This document shows positions 9,417 through 34,980 of a DNA stretch of 64,000 nt, in pieces; position 1 is the stretch's first letter; every line of letters begins with the position of its first letter. Source of the stretch: Candidatus Woesearchaeota archaeon. Its GTDB lineage: Archaea > Nanobdellota > Nanobdellia > SCGC-AAA011-G17 > CAYUTI01. The notes under the pieces were generated by a model. The model worked only from the letters and a program-made list of their open reading frames with translations, searched no databases and had not been told where the DNA came from. Both the position numbers and the translations under genes were made by a program. The stretch covers positions 7,026-71,025 of the forward strand of contig CAYUTI010000003.1 in NCBI GenBank assembly GCA_964447685.1, given 5' to 3'.

Positions 9417-10277
9417 TTTTTTAATTCTTTGATCTATTGGCGGGTGAGTTGAAAACATAGTTGCTGTAAAACCTTTTAGAGGATTTGAAATATATAGGTG
9501 TGCTGTTGCTCCTGAAGCAGTTTTCAAAGGAGTTTGATCATTTTTTATTTTTTCTAGTGCTGAAGCTAAACCTGGTGGATATCTTGTTAACATAGCACCT
9601 GAAGAATCAGCTAAGTATTCTCTTCTTCTTGATATTGCAAATTTAATCATTTGAGCTATGAATGGTGAAAGTATAATAAAGATGATACCTACTGCTGCAC
9701 CTATGACTTGTGCTTGATTCATTTCTCTTTTTCTTCCTGCACCACCCCATAAGAAAGATCTAAATGCAAAATTTCCTAGGATTACTACTGCACCAACTAA
9801 AACTGCAACTAACATCATTAATCTGGTATCATAATTTTTAATGTGAGACATCTCATGAGCTACTACTCCTTCTAGTTCTTGTCTATTAAGTTTTTCTAAA
9901 GCTCCTTGAGTTACTGCTAGAGAAGAGTTTTCTGGATCTTTTCCAGTTACAAATGCATTTATTGCCATGCTTGGGATTACGTAAACTTTTGGTTTAGGCA
10001 CTCCTGCTGCAATTGATAAACCATCTACTAAATGAAACAAATAAGGATGATCCTCTTTTTCTAGAGGTTTTGCTCCTGAAGCTGAAAGGACTATTTTATC
10101 TCCTTTGTAGTAACCTGTTAAAGTCATGACTAATGCAAGGATTAAAGCCAGTATCATTCCTAAAATTCCGTATTGAAAGATATAACTAATAGCGTAACCT
10201 AAAGCGATTATAAATATAAAAAATACAAAGATAAGGAGATAACTCCTCCTCTTATTTGAAGCAATTTGTTGATACAT
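9402..10277 (-). CDS. htpX: HtpX-family M48 zinc metalloprotease (membrane)
   Basis: HEMSHIKNYD HExxH motif, N-terminal TM helices, typical HtpX length (291 aa). Confidence 0.85.
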   Translation of the reverse strand: MYQQIASNKRRSYLLIFVFFIFIIALGYAISYIFQYGILGMILALILALVMTLTGYYKGDKIVLSASGAKPLEKEDHPYLFHLVDGLSIAAGVPKPKVYVIPSMAINAFVTGKDPENSSLAVTQGALEKLNRQELEGVVAHEMSHIKNYDTRLMMLVAVLVGAVVILGNFAFRSFLWGGAGRKREMNQAQVIGAAVGIIFIILSPFIAQMIKFAISRRREYLADSSGAMLTRYPPGLASALEKIKNDQTPLKTASGATAHLYISNPLKGFTATMFSTHPPIDQRIKKLRDM

Positions 10278-10279
10278 GA

Positions 10280-10882
10280 TTAGAATTGAACTTTTACTTC
10301 TTTCTTAGCTACAGGTTCTGCTTTAAAATATTCTTTTTTATCAAAGTGGAACATTGAAGCAATTATACTAGTTGGAAATCTTTGAATTGCTGTGTTTAAT
10401 CTAAGAACATTATCATTGTAGAACTGTCTAGCATAAGCAATCTTTGATTCAGTGCCTGCTAATTCTTCTTGTAGCATTAAGAAATTCTTATTTGCTTTAA
10501 GTTTAGGATATGCCTCTGCAACAGCAAACAAGGATTTTAAAGCATCTGTAATTTGATTTGAAGCTTGTGCTTTTTGTTCAATAGAATCTGCTTTCATTAA
10601 AGAAGTTCTTGCTTTAGTAACTGCAGTCAATACTTCTTTTTCGTGCTTAACATAACCTTTAACAGTGTTTACTAAATTAGGTATCAGATCATATCTTCTT
10701 TTTAATTGAACGTCGATTTGTGACCAAGCATTTTCTATTCTGTTTTTTAATGTGATTAGTCTGTTGTATGCTATAATTATGTATAATATAATTATAACAA
10801 AGATTACAATTATTGCTGTGATTATTAGATCCATTGTGGTGAGATATAATGGATAAGGGATTATAAAGGTTTTGGTTGACAA
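10280..10882 (-). CDS. lemA: LemA-family membrane protein
   Basis: N-terminal TM followed by LemA-like helical domain. The lemA-htpX pair is a conserved arrangement. Confidence 0.75.
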
Positions 10883-11145
10883 TTTCTTATATTTAAAAGT
10901 AGCATAAATGCTTGCAATTGCGACTTAAAAAAGATTGCTAAAAGTATAAACCTTTGTGAATCTGGAGAAGAAAACTATTGTCATGATGATTGTGGAAAAG
11001 AAAATAGTATTATAGATAACAACCAAGAAGAAGGTTTTTTTCAGAAGATTATTGGTTTTTTTAGAAGCTTATTTAGTTAAAATCTTAGATTCTTAAAAAA
11101 AAAAAACATTCTTTTATGACTTCTGAACATTTGGATTTAGAGAAG

Positions 11146-11260
11146 TTTTTGCGTAGCAAAAAATTTGGGAGAGCGAAGTGCAACGAGGTTTCCTGTTAAG
11201 TGAGCCGAGCGAGAGCGCAGCGTGGTCGAGGAGCGAAGCGAAGAAAGTCGAGTTTTGCCC
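11146..11260. repeat. GC-rich mosaic repeat element, copy A: hairpin ttttgcGTAgcaaaa, module Z, then the 13-bp left inverted repeat
   Basis: Shares the hairpin tttttgcgtagcaaaaaa with 11739-11757. gaagtgcaacgagg...ggtcgaggagcgaagcgaagaaagtcgag is shared with 13581-13623. Ends with tcgagttttgccc (11248-11260). Confidence 0.7.
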
Positions 11261-11295
11261 GATACATTAATAAACTTCTAAATAATTTTAATGTT

Positions 11296-11601
11296 ATGGA
11301 CATTAAAGAAATAGAAAAACGAATTATGGATTTTGCTAAGAAAAGAGCATCAGCAAAAAATTTTGATTTGACTCCAGAATTATCTTATATTCATTTAACT
11401 GAAGAATTGGGCGAAGTAGCAAGACAATTATCTAATAAAAAAATTCGCCCAGATTTATTTGATAAAGATAATCTGAAGGAAGAAATTGTTGATGTAATTC
11501 TGGAGGCAATTATTTTGGCGAATATTTGTGAAACAGATTTAGATAAAGAAATTAGCCAAAAGATTGATGCTCTTTTCAAAAGACATAATTTTTCTGAATA
11601 A
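11296..11601 (+). CDS. MazG-like nucleoside triphosphate pyrophosphohydrolase (all-alpha NTP-PPase)
   Basis: LTEELGEVARQ...EEIVDVILEAIILA EExxE/EExxD motifs typical of the MazG/HisE fold, ~101 aa. The track's GTG start at 11200 would read through the GC-rich repeat (Arg-rich artefact). Confidence 0.6.
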   Translation: MDIKEIEKRIMDFAKKRASAKNFDLTPELSYIHLTEELGEVARQLSNKKIRPDLFDKDNLKEEIVDVILEAIILANICETDLDKEISQKIDALFKRHNFSE

Positions 11602-11603
11602 GA

Positions 11604-11964
11604 GGGCAAAACTCGATTGCATTTAACATCGGAATTTAACGAAGTCGCCGAAGGCGATTTGGGGATTTTTCGCAGGAAAATCCCAGATAATCGCTGTTAT
11701 ACGCGTCTGCTAAGACCGAGCCATAGTCTGCAAGACGGTTTTTTGCGTAGCAAAAAAATGGCGAAGAGTTAAATTTAATTTTCATATCAATTCTGCGAAG
11801 CAGACTATATTTTAAGGGAATTCTCTCTCAAGCTCGAAGAGCTATAGATTAAATACATAAAGGGCAATTTCTTTTCTGGCACGAAGTGCTTTTCAATTAA
11901 ATCTTAAAGGGGTCGCCGTCCTTTTTTGCTTCTTTTTTGGAAAAAAGAAGATTATGGGGTCGCC
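11604..11964. repeat. GC-rich mosaic repeat element, copy B (hairpin-rich; modules X, Y, W)
   Basis: Starts with gggcaaaactcga, the reverse complement of 11248-11260. Contains stem-loops gtcgcc-gaa-ggcgat, gggatttt-cgcagg-aaaatccc, ttttgc-gta-gcaaaa, agctc-gaag-agct, gcac-gaa-gtgc, a 22-bp perfect palindrome at 11929-11950, and ggggtcgcc twice. Confidence 0.7.
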
Positions 11965-12027
11965 TAATTTCAAGTTAATTTAGAGTTATAGGTATTTTTA
12001 TATATTTAAAGATTTTAGATTAATATT

Positions 12028-12390
12028 ATGAGAAAGTTATATATTGTTTTGATCATTATTGGAATTTTGATAGTTGGATATACAATAAGCCTTAATTATT
12101 TTAATGCCAAATTCGATAAAGAATGGTTATCTTGTGAAACAGATGATGATTGTATTCTTGTTCCAGATTATCGAATTTGTTCTTGTGGAGATATGGCATT
12201 AAATAAGAATTTTGAAGATGATTATATGTCAATGAGATTTAAAAATAATATATATAATAAGATTTCTCTTGCCAAAATGCAAGTAATTTGTGAGGTTTGT
12301 GCAACTGTTGATCCTATAAATGGAGAAGTTGTTGGTAAATGTGGTAATTCCTTAGGAAGGAATATATGCGTGATTGGTTCTGGTTCTTAA
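12028..12390 (+). CDS. small Cys-rich secreted/membrane-anchored protein
   Basis: N-terminal hydrophobic anchor followed by a Cys-rich domain with 11 Cys (CETDDDC...CSCGD...CEVC). Confidence 0.5.
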   Translation: MRKLYIVLIIIGILIVGYTISLNYFNAKFDKEWLSCETDDDCILVPDYRICSCGDMALNKNFEDDYMSMRFKNNIYNKISLAKMQVICEVCATVDPINGEVVGKCGNSLGRNICVIGSGS

Positions 12391-12461
12391 TTTATGATCA
12401 TATTTCAAGCCAAATTGAAATTATAGAAAGACTTATATAATATCTAATTATTTATTCTGAT

Positions 12462-13100
12462 ATGCATAAAAAAATATTAATTAGTGCCTTAGTATTTATA
12501 ATGATTCTAACTAGTTTAGTTACTGCTAGTTTGTATGCTGAAAAAGTTCCAGATCCAAGCAGATTTACATCTATACAACCAAGATGGTCAGCACAATTAG
12601 AATTATCTGATGGACAAACAATAAAAGTATCTCTAATAACTTTTAAATGGTTGAGTTATCAAAATAAAACAGAAGTAACTCATATGTTCTACCTAAATGA
12701 CGGAATGGATGAATATTTAGCTGAAAAAGGTGCAGAATTTTTTGTTGAAAAATATGAATTTACATGTCAAGAGGGTTATGAAAATTGTACAAAAAAATGT
12801 GATTCTGGTGATGAATCTTGTATAGATGATTGTGTAGAAGAATTTAATTGCGGAAGTGTTTCTACTTGTAGTATATTTGCTCCAGATGACACATGCTCTG
12901 TAGAAAGAATAGAACAGAATTTTGGTAAGCACACCTTATCTTTAAATTTTGATCCTAATTCTGGCAAACCAATAATGGGACCCATAGTTTCTGATAGTGG
13001 AGTAATTATAAAATCTGCTAGCAATTATGATGGAAAACCTATTGAATTAGTAGCAGGACAAAATGGTTTTTTAAGTAAGGGGGTATTCTCATTAGAATGA
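12462..13100 (+). CDS. secreted Cys-rich protein
   Basis: Signal peptide (ILTSLVTASLYA) and multiple Cys pairs (CTKKCDSGDESCIDDCVEEFNC). Confidence 0.5.
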   Translation: MHKKILISALVFIMILTSLVTASLYAEKVPDPSRFTSIQPRWSAQLELSDGQTIKVSLITFKWLSYQNKTEVTHMFYLNDGMDEYLAEKGAEFFVEKYEFTCQEGYENCTKKCDSGDESCIDDCVEEFNCGSVSTCSIFAPDDTCSVERIEQNFGKHTLSLNFDPNSGKPIMGPIVSDSGVIIKSASNYDGKPIELVAGQNGFLSKGVFSLE

Positions 13101-13273
13101 AATTGAGATATCTGATACCTATTTTATTATTAATCTTAGTTTTAATTGTAGGTTGTGTGCAGAAATTAACTCCTCCTGAAGAGGAAGTGCCAGAAGAAAC
13201 ACTTGGAATTTCTACTCAAGAAGAACTATTTGAAGCTGTTAGAACTGCTGTGAATGAACATCTTAAAGAATAA
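13097..13273 (+). CDS. small putative lipoprotein (58 aa)
   Basis: ATG overlaps the upstream TGA (ATGA coupling). MKLRYLIPILLLILVLIVGC has a lipobox-like signal. Absent from the ORF track (<60 aa). Confidence 0.35.
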   Translation: MKLRYLIPILLLILVLIVGCVQKLTPPEEEVPEETLGISTQEELFEAVRTAVNEHLKE

Positions 13274-13632
13274 GCGACCCCAAATAAATCTCAAAACTGA
13301 AAGTTTTGACTATCTGTTGCGGAGCAACCAAGGCGACCCCCTTTTATTTTTTTGGAAATTGCCCTTTTTAGTTTTTAGAGAGAATTCCCGTTTTCTAGTC
13401 GTGAAAATTAAATTTAATTGCGTATAACATCGCGATTAAGAGAAGTCCGAAGCCCTCGAAAAAATTTCCCTCGTGAAACAGAGTTGGAAATTTTTTCAGA
13501 GATGGCGAGGATTTGGGAAAATTCCTGCAAGGGATTTTCCTCTTAATCGCTGTTAAATCCCCCGACGAACGAAGTGAGGAGAGTGCAACGGGGTCGAGGA
13601 GCGAAGCGACGAAGAAGTCACAGAACGGCGCG
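13274..13632. repeat. GC-rich mosaic repeat element, copy C (modules W in reverse orientation, X, Z), ending in the 14-bp inverted-repeat arm
   Basis: gcgacccc/ggcgacccc mirror ggggtcgcc at 11909/11956. Hairpins tcaaaact-gaa-agttttga and gttgc-gga-gcaac. agagagaattccc is the reverse complement of 11816-11829. 13504-13560 aligns with 11653-11705; 13581-13623 aligns with 11175-11252. Confidence 0.7.
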
Positions 13633-13662
13633 TTATTAGGGTGGGAATAAAAGAAAGCTTTT

Positions 13663-14391
13663 TTATCCTAAATCAAATTGTCCCCAATAATTAACTGAAA
13701 AATCTTTATCGGCAGAATCTAATTTATTGTAATCTGAATCTAATAAATCAACCTTTAAAGTATAAGTTCCGTCTTTCTCAAACATACAGCCCATTATTGA
13801 GATTTCTCCAGTTTGTTTCTGACCTGCTGAAATTGTGCTAATTTCATCAAACATAGGGCTTCCAGAACAAACTTCGTTATCGTTGCTATCATAAACATAC
13901 AAATCAAATTTTGGAGAAATCGAAACATCTCCTGTATTAGTAACGGTTACACGAGTGGGATAAAGATTTGCTACTTGAATTTGAACTCTATCAATAGATA
14001 AAGTAGCACTTTTTACTTTTTGTTTTGGAGGTTCTTGGGGCTGTGTTTGAGTATTTGAAGGAGTAGAAGTTTCAGAAGGTTGATTTACATTTTCTGTTGG
14101 TTGGATTTTTACGTCATCATTAAAGATATTTGACGAAGGCAAACTTACAGCATAAATTACAAACAGAATGATGACTAGTGTTATTTTTAATCCTCTTGAT
14201 AATTCAAAATTAAACTTTTCTTTTACAAACTTATTAACAGGTGGAAGTAAAACCAAAGACGCAAGTATAAGAGAACCACCTGCAACTATTCCACCACTAA
14301 AAAGAAAAGTTAATCCGCTTAATCCAAATAACACTCCGAAAATCCAACTTAAAACAAGACCTAATGTGATTTTTTTTGTTTCTTTTGACAT
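13663..14391 (-). CDS. membrane-anchored surface protein (N-terminal TM, Thr/Pro/Gln-rich linker, beta-rich C-terminal domain)
   Basis: 242 aa with TM segments at the N-terminus and a PSETSTPSNTQTQPQEPP linker. Own BRE/TATA at ~14413-14428 on the minus strand. Confidence 0.5.
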   Translation of the reverse strand: MSKETKKITLGLVLSWIFGVLFGLSGLTFLFSGGIVAGGSLILASLVLLPPVNKFVKEKFNFELSRGLKITLVIILFVIYAVSLPSSNIFNDDVKIQPTENVNQPSETSTPSNTQTQPQEPPKQKVKSATLSIDRVQIQVANLYPTRVTVTNTGDVSISPKFDLYVYDSNDNEVCSGSPMFDEISTISAGQKQTGEISIMGCMFEKDGTYTLKVDLLDSDYNKLDSADKDFSVNYWGQFDLG

Positions 14392-14434
14392 TATAAATAA
14401 ATTAGAATAAACTGATATAAAAAGTTTTCTAAAG

Positions 14435-14463
14435 AGGGTGGGAAAGTTAGCGCCGTTCTGTGA
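14435..14463. repeat. 10-bp direct repeat agggtgggaa plus the 14-bp right inverted-repeat arm gcgccgttctgtga
   Basis: Perfect reverse complement of 13618-13631. agggtgggaa is also at 13638-13647. Confidence 0.7.
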
Positions 14464-14565
14464 TTGGATTTAACACCTATTATACGAATAAAAAGTTCGC
14501 TTTTTATCCCTATTTTGGAGTTATTACGAACTTTTTTATACTTTGGAGTTATTTTTAAAATTATG

Positions 14566-15342
14566 GAGAAGGAAAAATATCTTCAAAAACTAAATGAAGA
14601 ACTTAAATTAAGGGGTTATTCTGAAAAAACTAAAAAAAGTTATAGTTATATTATTACCAGATATCTGGAAAAAGAAATAGATCCTAGAGAATTTTTATTA
14701 AAAAATAGTTATAAAAGTAAATCTACAATGCGTAGCAATTATTTTGCGCTAAAGTTTTTTTATGAAAATGTCTTAAAGCAAAAATTTAAAGAAGAGATAC
14801 CTCTAGCAAAAAATGAATCAAAAATACCTGTTGTATTAAGTAAAGAAGAAGTCCAAAAACTCTTTGATGTTACATTAAACTTAAAACATAAATTTGCCTT
14901 AATGCTATTATATTATACAGGGATAAGATTGAATGAGCTCATTAATTTAAAATGGGAAGACCTAGACTTTGATAGAAAGGTTATTCATCTTAAAACAACA
15001 AAAGGAAATCATCAAAGAATTATTTTTTTACATAATAAATTGATACAAATCATAACCTTCTTAGGGTTGGAAAAGAAGGGGTTTATCCTAATTTCAAATA
15101 GAAATAAAAAATATAATCAAAGATCCATACAACAAATTATCAAGAATGCTGTAAAAAAAACAGGTATAAACAAAAAAGTTACTCCTCATAGTTTAAGACA
15201 TTCATTTGCTACCCATCTATTGGATTCTGGAGCAGATATACGACATATTCAAAGATTATTAGGTCATAAGGATTTGAAAACTACTCAGATTTATACCCAT
15301 GTTACCAATAAAGAAATAAATAAACTTTCTGAATTATTGTAG
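14566..15342 (+). CDS. XerC/XerD-like tyrosine recombinase (archaeal XerA-like integrase)
   Basis: R (GIRLNEL), HxxR (HSLRHSFATH) and catalytic Y (TQIYTHV) of the tyrosine recombinase fold. ~259 aa from ATG 14566; the track's TTG start at 14464 is probably non-coding. Confidence 0.85.
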   Translation, partial: EKEKYLQKLNEELKLRGYSEKTKKSYSYIITRYLEKEIDPREFLLKNSYKSKSTMRSNYFALKFFYENVLKQKFKEEIPLAKNESKIPVVLSKEEVQKLFDVTLNLKHKFALMLLYYTGIRLNELINLKWEDLDFDRKVIHLKTTKGNHQRIIFLHNKLIQIITFLGLEKKGFILISNRNKKYNQRSIQQIIKNAVKKTGINKKVTPHSLRHSFATHLLDSGADIRHIQRLLGHKDLKTTQIYTHVTNKEINKLSELL

Positions 15343-15383: not shown

Positions 15384-16697
15384 ATGGCTTATGATGTTAT
15401 TGTCGGTAGAAATGAGTCCGACAGAAAAAGATTTGGTGAAGAGGGAACTGTTCTTTTAGGCAAGCAATATGTAAAGATGGGTCCAGTTACTAGTTTGAGT
15501 AATAATGTTTTTTTGGATGTTAATCGGCCTCATGTTATATTATTGGCTGGTAAAAGGGGTTCTGGAAAATCTTATACTCTTTCAGTTATAGCAGAAGGAA
15601 TTTCTAATTTACCAAAATATATCTCCAAAAATATTTCTGTTTTAATATTTGACACGATGGGTGTTTTCTGGACAATGAAATATAAAAATCTGATGGATGA
15701 AGATCTTTTAATGGAATGGGGAATGAGTCCTGAAGAATTAAATATTTTGTGGTGGGTCCCAAAAGGTTTCTACAAAAAGTATGAAAGAGAAAATTTACCA
15801 GTTGATAAACCCTTTACAATTAAACCTTCTGAATTAAATTCAGGAGATTGGTGTGAAGTTTTTGGTGTTAGTATGTTTAATGAAGAAGGAATTTTGATTG
15901 AAAAAGCAGTTTCAGCTGCTTCAAAAAAAGGGAATTATTCTATTTTAGATGTTGTTAAAGAGATTCAAAAAGATAAAAAAAGTAGTCAGAGGGTTAGAGA
16001 TGGTTTAGAAAATAGATTTTTAGCTGCTCATGGATGGGGGTTGTTTAGTAAGGAAGGAACTGCAATCAAAGACTTATTAGTTCCTGGAAGGACTTCAGTT
16101 CTTGATGTTAGTGTTTACACTCATGTTGCTGGAAGTTGGGCTATTAAAAATTTAGTTATTGGATTAGTTTCTAGAAAATTATTATTAGAAAGGATGATTA
16201 ATAGAAAAGTTGAAGAATTAGCTAATATTAAATATGGTACTACTTATTTTACTCGAGAAGAAGAAAAAGAAACCATGCCTCTAGTATGGTTGATGTTAGA
16301 TGAAGCTCATGAGGCTTTACCTAAAGAGGGAAAAACCCCTGCTACTGATGCTTTAGTTCAATTACTAAGAGAAGGAAGACAACCTGGTGTTACTTTAGTT
16401 TTAGCAACTCAGCAACCAGGAGAGATTCATAGAGATGTTATTACTCAGTCTGATATTGTAATTAGTCATAGGTTAACTGCTAAAAGAGATATTGAAGCTT
16501 TGAATGCAATGATGCAGAGTTATTTACAAAGCGATATGGTAGGGTATTTGAATAATTTACCTAGACTTTCTGGTTCGGGTATTGTTTTAGATGATAATTC
16601 TGAAAGAATTTATCCAATTAGAGTTAGACCAAAATTAAGTTGGCATGGTGGTGCTGCACCTAGTGCTTTAAAAATAAGAAAAGAAATTATGTTTTAA
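15384..16697 (+). CDS. HerA/FtsK/VirB4-superfamily P-loop ATPase (DUF87-like)
   Basis: N-terminal barrel-like segment (DVIVGR...GTVLLGK), Walker A GKRGSGKSYT, Walker B LMLDEAHE, ATQQPGEI sensor region. Confidence 0.7.
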   Translation: MAYDVIVGRNESDRKRFGEEGTVLLGKQYVKMGPVTSLSNNVFLDVNRPHVILLAGKRGSGKSYTLSVIAEGISNLPKYISKNISVLIFDTMGVFWTMKYKNLMDEDLLMEWGMSPEELNILWWVPKGFYKKYERENLPVDKPFTIKPSELNSGDWCEVFGVSMFNEEGILIEKAVSAASKKGNYSILDVVKEIQKDKKSSQRVRDGLENRFLAAHGWGLFSKEGTAIKDLLVPGRTSVLDVSVYTHVAGSWAIKNLVIGLVSRKLLLERMINRKVEELANIKYGTTYFTREEEKETMPLVWLMLDEAHEALPKEGKTPATDALVQLLREGRQPGVTLVLATQQPGEIHRDVITQSDIVISHRLTAKRDIEALNAMMQSYLQSDMVGYLNNLPRLSGSGIVLDDNSERIYPIRVRPKLSWHGGAAPSALKIRKEIMF

Positions 16698-34904: not shown

Positions 34905-34980
34905 TGGGCCCGAGGGGATTTGAACCCCCAACCACCCGATTAAGAGTCGGGTGCTATAAACCAGGTTAAGCCACGAGCCC
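34905..34980 (-). tRNA. tRNA-Lys (anticodon CUU), CCA encoded
   Basis: Minus-strand sequence GGGCTCGTGGCTTAACCTGGTTTATAGCACCCGACTCTTAATCGGGTGGTTGGGGGTTCAAATCCCCTCGGGCCCA folds as a cloverleaf: 7-bp acceptor stem, anticodon stem CCCGA/TCGGG with loop CTCTTAA, T-loop TTCAAAT. Confidence 0.8.

Follow-up and report, generated by a model that had tools for sequence, protein, structure and literature searches.

A probable integron-like cassette array beside a XerA-family recombinase gene in a Woesearchaeota genome

Introduction

What are the gene units that lie, each framed by its own inverted repeat, next to a tyrosine recombinase gene of a Candidatus Woesearchaeota archaeon, and which sequences and which enzyme would move them? 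The question is raised by a 64,000-nucleotide stretch of assembly GCA_964447685.1 (contig CAYUTI010000003.1, positions 7,026 to 71,025; hereafter the window), in the interval between lemA (10280-10882, minus strand) and the gene for a 259-aa tyrosine recombinase (14563-15342, plus strand). The window has ~30% G+C and carries archaeal housekeeping genes, and its nearest protein relatives belong to metagenome-assembled genomes of Woesearchaeota and Pacearchaeota. Our answer, to which we give a probability of about 70%, is that the interval 11117-14530 represents an array of three cassettes in an integron-like platform for gene capture, with the adjacent XerA-family recombinase as its most likely operator.

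The feature is real and non-random. Three of the four strongest GC islands of the window fall in the array interval, the fourth being a tRNA, and so do five of the seven G+C-rich stem-GNA-stem hairpins, while the 18-mer GGTCGAGGAGCGAAGCGA occurs twice against zero expected occurrences. The first-pass annotation had described three perfect inverted repeat (IR) pairs and four reusable modules (X, Y, Z and W) in this interval; direct reading confirmed the IRs at their positions and a repeat search returned the modules as repeats D1, D3, D8 and I22. Arm motifs with zero mismatches are confined to 11.6-14.5 kb, and motif searches for the IRs and modules found no copy in the 64-kb window outside 11.1-14.6 kb.

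Structured sites between the cassettes

On present sequence evidence, the recombination sites would be the structured elements between the genes (module X together with its left partner) and not the IRs. These elements are ~90-190 nt long, fold on the plus strand into a Y and follow one plan, AATTG-NNNN-TAAC-A, a 2-nt bulge, an 11-bp stem, two inner hairpins and then TGTTA. Read along the arm, TTG, four to six variable bases, TAAC, A and two further bases lead into an 11-nt box and GAAGT, which are followed by a hairpin, ATTTGGG, a second hairpin, the reverse complement of the box and TGTTA. The closing stem consists of an R box (..TAACA / TGTTA..), the 2-nt bulge and an 11-bp L box of free sequence, and the conserved linkers GAAGT and ATTTGGG join the two inner hairpins. 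The same site plan with different box sequences was found at the loci of orthologous recombinases and at a second MazG locus (L110; L-numbers denote the other loci compared with the window).

Among 14 aligned sites AAC, GAAGT, ATTTGG and TGTT are invariant, and RNAalifold folded the alignment into a Y-shaped three-way junction of 25 pairs with compensatory changes in 16. A hand-built two-arm alignment of 11 sites showed 95.2% of cells paired (a figure inflated by the way the sites were chosen, as discussed below) and 10 of the 11 L-box pairs changing on both sides; none of 500 shuffles matched the observed pairing, and slides fell short as well. Folding with DNA parameters gave a Y for five sites (z -3.6 to -7.0), with the plus strand favoured over the minus strand by 2.6-3.9 kcal/mol in all five. 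The second helix (P2) contains a G.T pair in 11 of the 14 sites and C-G in the remaining three.

A covariance model built from the 14 sites (CM R1, match threshold E<0.01) was used to scan 1.01 Mb that included the window, loci of the recombinase clade and L110, and a further 1.02 Mb around more distant tyrosine recombinases, viral ones included. The first set returned 26 matches, every one on the strand of the recombinase gene. Some belong to the L110 array, and all the others lie upstream of a recombinase gene from this clade (36-100% identity); 12 of the 26 lie outside the training set (L033, L034, L035, L036, L037, L040, L046, L110). The second set gave none at E<=1, and the window has no match beyond the array. 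Apart from the L110 array, the sites are exclusively associated and co-oriented with this recombinase clade. The structured inter-cassette elements picked out in the first-pass annotation are in this sense a conserved, covarying hairpin family tied to the recombinase, as the covariance model, RNAalifold and the arm alignment all indicate. The attC-like folding predicted there is borne out in the Y hairpin, the R and L boxes and the AAC/GTT triplets, whereas the geometry differs from that of attC.

Site searches used the strict hairpin pattern and the covariance model only, with viral-contig loci as negative controls. A looser hairpin regular expression that admitted G.T pairs was rejected as non-specific (59 matches in 1.04 Mb of viral control). 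In the metagenome scan about 10 of 80 loci were useful, the back-translated protein-alignment patterns being too generic. The L110 contig is 18.7 kb long, of which 11.6 kb was read.

Cassette boundaries and the proximal site

We compared the six bases after the GTT of each left site with the six before the AAC of the right site across the cargo, and with the right site's own 3' arm. The comparison across the cargo gave 64/72 complementary variable positions and a perfect match in 7 of 12 cassettes (permutation p<1e-5), as against 40/72 with the site's own partner and ~2.5 of 6 on random pairing. An independent set of sites found by the covariance model only, and unused in framing the idea, gave 41/48 with three perfect cassettes (p=2.6e-4). 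At L024 two arms are identical but for one base (GTTAAGTTC versus GTTAAGTTT, C/T) and their partners across the cargo differ to match (GAACTTAAC versus AAACTTAAC, G/A). Since this boundary signature is inverted complementarity, it is of the type left by recombination of folded hairpin sites, as in integron cassettes, and not by double-stranded integration, which leaves direct repeats. No target-site duplications were seen around the elements on reading the sequence.

A proximal palindrome, TTTAAC-AAC-TATTAAACGCAG-loop-CTGTTTAATAG.., lies directly upstream of the recombinase promoter in all orthologues of at least 59% identity and is kept in the window, L002, L021, L024, L027, L028 and L030; in L021 it stands without cassettes, with ordinary genes upstream. 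Relatives of 40-45% identity have a compact proximal site, ATTTC-NNNN-AAC followed by TAGTTATATGCGAA, with TTTCCGATAAC-TAGT-TATATGCGAA as a compact dif-like example. A canonical 11-6-11 dif was not visible in the window, and the proximal region lacks a 28-bp site with two 11-bp arms and a 6-bp spacer. In both groups of orthologues the part 3' of AAC is conserved with the gene, while the part 5' of it varies and is complementary to the last cassette. Because the one part stays with the gene and the other follows the last cassette, the exchange is placed beside the AAC of the 5' arm, and the resident half of the proximal site appears to behave as an attI.

We had also considered the plus orientation with a crossover between G and TT of the 3' arm, and dropped it, since the L box and 3' arm of the proximal site go with the gene and its 5' arm with the last cassette. 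The minus strand gives the best reading of the array, with a divergent recombinase gene, the attI-like site and then cassettes that each end in a structured site.

Assemblies tend to end at this point. Outside the window, 11 contigs carry an orthologue that is at least 55% identical, and 10 of them stop 70-1533 nt upstream of it, as would be expected if repeats or strain heterogeneity are present there. Assemblies from many samples (L002, L003, L022-L030) break there, and the contigs of L022 and L023 begin within the proximal palindrome, in its loop.

Inverted repeats of the cassettes

The perfect IRs are ruled out as sites of the recombinase because each pair is private in sequence and lies within the covarying cassette boundaries; they are probably cassette-specific clamps. 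A private IR hugs the cargo in every cassette examined, and the same bracketing was found around all those examined in four other loci. Its length is 9-23 nt, longer and composite in cassette b of the window and in cassette 1 of L031. Between the 3' arm of the preceding site and the left arm of the IR there is usually a GC-rich Z module of 45-75 nt, and the right arm abuts the TTG and AAC arm of the next site. The Z module carries RGYGCARCG and a GNA hairpin; its motif also occurs in L003, L024, L031, L034 and L110, and the module is absent from some cassettes (L033, L036, L037). A methyltransferase cassette of L110 and a cassette of L031 with another open reading frame (ORF), from different organisms, share the site, the Z module and the right-end sequence and differ in IRs and cargo.

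In the window, the ggggtcgcc (11909, 11956) and g(g)cgacccc (13274, 13332) repeats named in the first-pass annotation for the second unit do exist, but they lie within a single longer inverted repeat (11769-11965 versus 13274-13417), colinear and imperfect, which is made up of I13 (16 nt at 100%), I22 (16 nt at 94%), I4 and I6. The flanking of the MazG-like gene by its IR also stands, with the start codon corrected to the ATG at 11296 from 11297. Both agggtgggaa just inside the two arms of IR c and the spacing of about 100 bp between the last arm and the recombinase are as described, the ATG at 14563 following 100 nt after the arm.

AGGGTGGGAA at 13638-13647 and 14426-14435 forms a direct, not inverted, repeat just inside the IR c arms. 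Very similar motifs, GGGTGGGGGA/GGGTGGGGAT, lie beside the GC-rich IR arms CGGCGCGC/GCGCGCCG in cassettes of L040 (positions ~1140-1160 and ~1560-1580) and L046 (~5610). Either a binding site or a flank conserved within one cargo family may explain such repeats.

Cargo and turnover

The cargo differs among the window, L024, L031, L046 and L110, and turnover between related genomes is seen at each locus examined. It comprises MazG-like, secreted Cys-rich and membrane proteins, a methyltransferase and ORF-less GC-rich units, and it lies on either strand, each with its own AT-rich, TATA-like leader. The proposal that the flanking repeats pair the 5' and 3' untranslated regions (UTRs) of mRNAs into panhandles fits poorly with cargo on either strand that has its own promoter-like leaders, outside which the IRs lie.

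The window and L110 share the core of the MazG cassette at ~96% DNA identity, set among different neighbours; the common block extends from the middle of Z through the IR and promoter into the MazG gene. MazG protein homologues have 82-97% identity, and elsewhere, at 82-85%, the family is an ordinary, tightly packed chromosomal gene without the modules. The identity alone is weakened as a proof of mobility by these homologues in housekeeping contexts, the cassette context being found only in L110. The presence of the family as an ordinary gene in other genomes suggests that the cassettes recruit cellular genes. Homologues at L111 (10001-10309) and L113-L118 lie beside Hjc/RadA or Fe-S/SOD genes without Y-sites, and the conservation of the MazG homologues (82-85%) exceeds that of the recombinase (66% at most). 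The L110 copy loses its last ~8 codons and runs into the middle of a Y-site (hairpin 2 and 3' arm) at 10280-10340, which looks like an illegitimate or mid-site recombination event.

ORF-less GC-rich cassettes of ~370-450 nt are IR-bracketed like the coding ones (L110 10320-11100, L003 111-850, L110 7240-7690). Two sets are tandemly duplicated (L003 111-480 equals 481-850; L110 10320-11100) and one L110 cassette has a strongly paired segment with a CTTCGG loop; such cassettes may code for small RNAs or be empty frames. An ORF upstream of the L031 array (540-1010) appears by eye to be a small IS200/IS605-type transposase and is followed by a Z-like GC-rich segment at 1020-1110.

Features of the array in the window

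The features are collected in Table 1.

Table 1. Coordinates of the array features and the adjacent recombinase gene in the window
Feature	Position	Strand	Content or evidence
Site 0, distal degenerate Y-site	11117..11207	+	AAC 11126-11128; TGTTAAGTGA 11195-11204
Cassette a, distal	11129..11627	+	Site 0 body, R' GTTAAGTGA, Z, IR, MazG-like gene, IR, TTGCATTTAAC
Z module of cassette a	11203..11247	+	GC-/purine-rich; GAGAGCGCAGCGTGG and GCGAAGC mini-hairpin; repeat D1, 89% to 13579-13613
IR a left arm tcgagttttgccc	11248..11260	+	Identical in L110
Cassette a cargo, MazG-like NTP pyrophosphohydrolase, 101 aa	11296..11601	+	Pfam PF03819, E 1.4e-7
IR a right arm gggcaaaactcga	11604..11616	+	Abuts TTG and AAC arm of site A
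Site A, Y-site	11614..11708	+	AAC 11625-11627; TGTTATACGC 11692-11701; CM R1 66.4 bits, E 9.8e-12
Cassette b	11628..13428	+	Site A body, R' GTTATACGC, TTTTTTGCGTAGCAAAAAA-hairpin leader, long IR, three genes, long IR, TTGCGTATAAC
IR b left arm, composite	11769..11965	+	Broken by GAA-triloop hairpins 11792-11804, 11831-11843, 11879-11889
Cassette b cargo, three genes	12028..13273	+	12028-12390, 12462-13100, 13097-13273
IR b right arm	13274..13417	+	Abuts TTG and AAC arm of site B
Site B, best-preserved Y-site	13415..13564	+	AAC 13426-13428; bulge TC; L box GCGATTAAGAG/CTCTTAATCGC; TGTTAAATCC 13552-13561
Cassette c, nearest recombinase	13429..14474	+	Site B body, R' GTTAAATCC, Z, IR, minus-strand gene, IR, TTGGATTTAAC
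Z module of cassette c	13563..13617	+	Repeat D1; side branch in circular-junction fold
IR c left arm tcacagaacggcgc	13618..13631	+	Direct reading
Cassette c cargo, 242-aa membrane/surface protein	13663..14391	-	ORF; family searches Pfam/NCBIfam
IR c right arm gcgccgttctgtga	14450..14463	+	Direct reading
Proximal attI-like site	14464..14530	+	TTGGATTTAAC from cassette c, variable; ACCTATTATACGAAT...GGAGTTATTACGAAC resident, conserved with recombinase gene
XerA-type tyrosine recombinase, 259 aa	14563..15342	+	Catalytic R, K, H, R, H, Y conserved; without IntI-specific insertion

Site B, the best preserved, scores 81.2 bits (E 3.8e-15) with CM R1 and folds as DNA at -33.2 kcal/mol (z -6.1), its minus strand at -29.3. 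Site A is a hybrid whose L'' GGAATTTAACG is unpaired with its own L' GATAATCGC. Site 0, with 42.9 bits (E 2.6e-6) and itself among the 14 training sequences, is homologous to the L110 site at 9775-9908, which likewise lies left of MazG, and the pairing of its L box is largely lost. In cassette b, R' GTTATACGC and GCGTATAAC (13420-13428) are perfectly reverse-complementary, with 6/6 variable positions matching, and the match is equally perfect between GTTAAATCC and GGATTTAAC (14466-14474) in cassette c. The boundaries of cassette a are those predicted from a crossover after AAC, and their complementarity is only 4/6. The proteins of cassette b are small and Cys-rich with N-terminal hydrophobic segments and had no Pfam or NCBIfam match; in the same databases the cargo protein of cassette c matched no known family.

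Rfam at the gathering threshold found only tRNA-Lys (34905-34980) in the window, with nothing but chance matches at E<=10 in the array region; ARAGORN found no tRNA there, and Rfam had no match in L110 8500-11606. A known structured RNA, such as a split RNase P-like RNA, an intron or an rRNA processing stem, was ruled out on these negatives. The GC island at 40581-40660, considered as a further element, looks like coding sequence.

Between lemA and site 0 (10883-11116) lies an AT-rich stretch in which one frame reads as a Cys-rich peptide; it has no start codon yielding an ORF of at least 40 aa and may represent either the remains of a cassette or a small gene missed in annotation. Immediately after the recombinase gene, 15384-16697 encodes a HerA/FtsK-like ATPase (DUF87 and HerA_C). 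The downstream neighbours of orthologous recombinases differ locus by locus, so the pairing of recombinase and HerA is probably not conserved. Cumulative GC skew climbs over nearly the whole window (1-64000) with no switch at the array, and the plus strand, on which the sites fold better, is the lagging-strand template here if the usual skew rule holds.

The recombinase

The best family of the recombinase is NCBIfam XerA_Arch (206 bits, just under the cut-off of 220), while the IntI model TIGR02249 reaches 193 bits against a cut-off of 265 and matches in two stretches only. Its alignment with the XerA structures 5hxy and 4a8e runs from end to end. Against VchIntIA (2a3v) query residues 161-181 (21 residues) face 174-239 of the chain (66 residues), so the IntI insertion is missing. 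The Xer-like character without this insertion, suspected from the sequence in the first-pass annotation, is confirmed by both the family scores and the 2a3v alignment. The catalytic residues R-K-H-R-H-Y are invariant in 14 orthologues, and the viral contigs hold no close relative (best 41%).

Weighing the explanations

Doubt attaches mainly to the enzyme, which may be a dedicated integrase or an exploited housekeeping XerA. In the latter case the recombinase would be a XerA dimer resolvase, the proximal site its dif, and the cassettes non-autonomous hitch-hikers resembling integrative mobile elements exploiting Xer (IMEXs), as CTX-phi and TLC-phi are at the dif of Vibrio; the physical mechanism could be the same, and the difference would lie in function and selection, there being no dedicated platform for gene capture. 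Single-recombinase Xer systems such as XerS and XerH have dif beside the gene, a habit that the locus would share, and the best family score and the end-to-end structural alignment are with archaeal XerA. The very many conserved orthologues, the site-plus-gene pair without cassettes in L021 and the compact dif-like proximal site of the 40-45% relatives point the same way. However, only the half of the proximal site 3' of AAC is conserved, the other being cassette-derived, and double-stranded integration at dif leaves direct overlap repeats, not the inverted complementarity seen. GC skew shows no sign switch at the locus, though the location of the terminus is not established for these archaea, and in Thermococcales dif does not adjoin xerA (PMC2958812). 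We consider this explanation unlikely, yet it deserves to be kept in view. Far less probable is that the elements are miniature inverted-repeat transposable elements (MITEs) or repetitive extragenic palindromic (REP)-like sequences, non-autonomous repeats that insert unaided or with the help of an unlinked transposase and lie near the recombinase by accident or local preference. They are indeed imperfect palindromes rich in stable hairpins, with ORF-less copies that are in part tandemly duplicated (L003, L110), and the L110 array has no recombinase in the 11.6 kb read. But the genome-wide scatter that the first-pass annotation set as the mark of a generic MITE family is not what we found, as no copies lie away from the arrays in the window or in the ~2 Mb of loci; all copies are co-oriented with the gene and free of target-site duplications, and covariation across the cargo between neighbouring elements is impossible by independent insertion. 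Equally remote, in our estimate, is the view that the GC-rich modules are structured non-coding RNAs, or UTR panhandles that pair the two ends of a transcript and act on expression or stability. Strand-specific stability, G.U-type pairs, GC-rich islands of a kind typical of RNA genes in AT-rich genomes and the ORF-less L110 cassette with its CTTCGG loop would suit it. Against this, no Rfam family matched at any threshold, cargo on either strand with IRs outside the promoter-like leaders means that a transcript rarely spans both arms, most loops are C-GNA-G triloops of the DNA-hairpin type, and both the signature across the cargo and the split of the proximal site into variable and conserved parts are left unexplained.

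The reading of the array as an integron-like platform has its own difficulties. The recombinase resembles an ordinary XerA orthologue, with 60-66% conservation throughout Woesearchaeota, and may be just a chromosome-dimer resolvase; the insertion on which IntI depends to bind attC is missing from it. In the 11.6 kb read of the 18.7-kb L110 contig, no recombinase accompanies the array. Sites 0 and A have non-pairing L boxes and cassette a only 4/6 complementarity, so that part of the array may be a fossil; given these decayed or hybrid L boxes, it is the distal part that may be inactive. The pairing percentage of the arm alignment (95.2%) is inflated because nine of its 11 sites were first picked by a search demanding L-box complementarity, the covariance model and RNAalifold results being less circular, and G.U pairs and strand bias fit a transcribed RNA equally well. 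An alignment of the window with L110, tried as a means of fixing the exchange point, failed as high identity starts inside Z; the MazG identity block begins at neither of the proposed crossover points, and the evidence for the exact exchange point is mainly that the attI-like site is conserved. Finally, the recombination activity of the array is deduced from sequence and folds, not from circles or empty-site reads.

Proposed mechanism

The bottom strands of attC are recombined by IntI in folded form, and the genome of CTX-phi enters dif through XerCD as a folded single strand. GNA triloops (C-GNA-G) are typical of stable DNA hairpins. By analogy, the recombinase of the integron-like platform would act as catalyst on folded single-stranded DNA, a view with which the stability of the plus strand (5/5 sites) and the strand-specific G.T pairs are consistent, and exchange would take place next to the conserved AAC of the 5' arm, at a cleavage position that is so far approximate. 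On the minus strand, a cassette would read TT and six nucleotides, IR, cargo, IR, an optional Z, Y-site and G.

In an excised circle the bases before AAC would pair perfectly (9-10 bp) with the bases after GTT, and the cassette-specific IR (9-23 bp) would prolong this helix beyond the side branch of Z, leaving the cargo in a closed loop. When the circular junction of cassette c was rebuilt, it gave a single fold of -60.7 kcal/mol (z -10.2) composed of IR stem, Z side branch, 10-bp R box, bulge, L box and Y. In the array a site's own R box is weak (~5 bp), and only across the cargo can the strong R box form. As the in-array R box is so short, we infer that the IRs nucleate the long-range pairing in transiently single-stranded DNA and so may promote both excision and re-insertion; a role for the Z module is conjectural. 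The predicted circle junctions are GGATTTAAC joined to ATCGCGATTAAGAG for cassette c and GCGTATAAC joined to ATCGGAATTTAACG for cassette b, and the loss of cassette c would be expected to leave GCGTATAAC joined to ACCTATTATACG.

Significance

Integrons are defined by IntI and its special insertion, and their origin from Xer-like ancestors is an open question. It is an even bet, in our judgement, that across Woesearchaeota, Pacearchaeota and related DPANN archaea a Xer-type recombinase without the IntI insertion recombines folded single-stranded DNA in the manner of an integron, recognising the structure of an undescribed family of Y-sites. If so, the system would be an independent invention of the integron or a relic of the transition from Xer to IntI, and a widespread archaeal platform run by a plain Xer-type enzyme would show that the insertion is dispensable for cassette capture and offer a living model of an ancestral or convergent integron state. 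Its recombinase could be the one missing from the clusters of attC sites lacking integron-integrases (CALINs) reported in archaea, and could explain the scarcity of IntI near archaeal attC clusters (counts in PMC9668308).

The private IR of each cargo would then be a new device, closing the cassette so that the site assembles across the cargo. The platform would be a possible route for the exchange of accessory surface, secreted and house-cleaning genes among genome-reduced DPANN archaea, and would explain why assemblies break upstream of the recombinase gene. The MazG case, a chromosomal gene in some genomes and cassette cargo in others, bears on the birth of cassettes. Sites that are structure-specific and free in sequence would also be attractive recombination tools.

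Comparison with known systems

Plasmid pdif modules of Acinetobacter resemble the array in being gene modules bounded by Xer-type sites and shuffled between replicons, with IR-bracketed genes. However, pdif sites are 28-bp double-stranded XerC/XerD sites in alternating inverted orientation, whereas the sites here are direct, long and hairpin-forming and the bracketing IRs are private and not recombinase sites. With REP sequences, bacterial interspersed mosaic elements (BIMEs) and MITEs the sites share short GC-rich imperfect palindromes between genes and ORF-less copies. They differ in being undispersed, co-oriented, confined to one recombinase clade and linked to their neighbours by complementarity across the cargo; dispersed copies in either orientation with target-site duplications were not found within the window and loci scanned.

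Xer/dif systems with IMEXs have in common with the locus a Xer-family recombinase and successive integrations beside one chromosomal site. CTX-phi shows that Xer can act on a folded single-stranded hairpin by a single strand exchange, and the genes of XerS and XerH, like the one here, lie next to their sites. The elements here differ as tiny, non-replicative gene cassettes and not phages or islands, and many different cassettes are served by one structural family of sites while the proximal site keeps one conserved half. Their flanks are reverse complements, in place of the direct dif-like repeats sharing an overlap region that mark IMEXs.

Integrons are matched in more respects. A tyrosine recombinase gene adjoins a resident site and an array of co-oriented sites; the sites are defined by structure, with AAC/GTT triplets in the R box, an L box of free sequence and one strand that folds better; the cassette start is complementary to the inverse core at the cassette end; and the cargo is small, accessory, often secreted or membrane-bound, and different between relatives. 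When the array is read on the minus strand, the gene is divergent from it as in class 1 integrons. The integron resemblance proposed from the first inspection therefore holds for the recombinase with its array of mobile cassettes, the attC-like elements, the boundary signature with a resident attI-like site, and the turnover; it does not extend to the IntI-specific additional domain around patch III, which the XerA-like enzyme lacks, to canonical attC geometry or to co-oriented promoterless cassettes of the Pc type. Compared with attC-aadA7 and the Nanoarchaeota attC of data S10 (PMC9668308), the present site forms a Y that encloses two hairpins, and it has one 2-nt bulge, an R box of 5-10 bp and an L box of 11 bp without mismatch, whereas a canonical attC is a single hairpin with a 7-bp R box, an unpaired central spacer and extrahelical L-box bases, the latter two being absent here. 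The private perfect IR around each cargo and the optional conserved Z between R box and IR also set the array apart, and cargo on either strand with its own promoter leaves no common Pc logic.

A 2022 survey (Ghaly et al.) reported 6 IntIs against 539 attC sites in 75 archaeal genomes, mostly in IntI-less clusters, the integrons being defined by an IntI-domain profile and canonical attCs; a few genomes of Woesearchaeales and Pacearchaeales are listed with 2-4 attCs and no IntI (PMC9668308). The present site motifs do not occur in the supplement of that study (PMC9668308), and we found no description of this system in the literature, our coverage of which is incomplete. In this comparison, the locus is best read as an integron variant, new in being driven by Xer and in the architecture of its sites.

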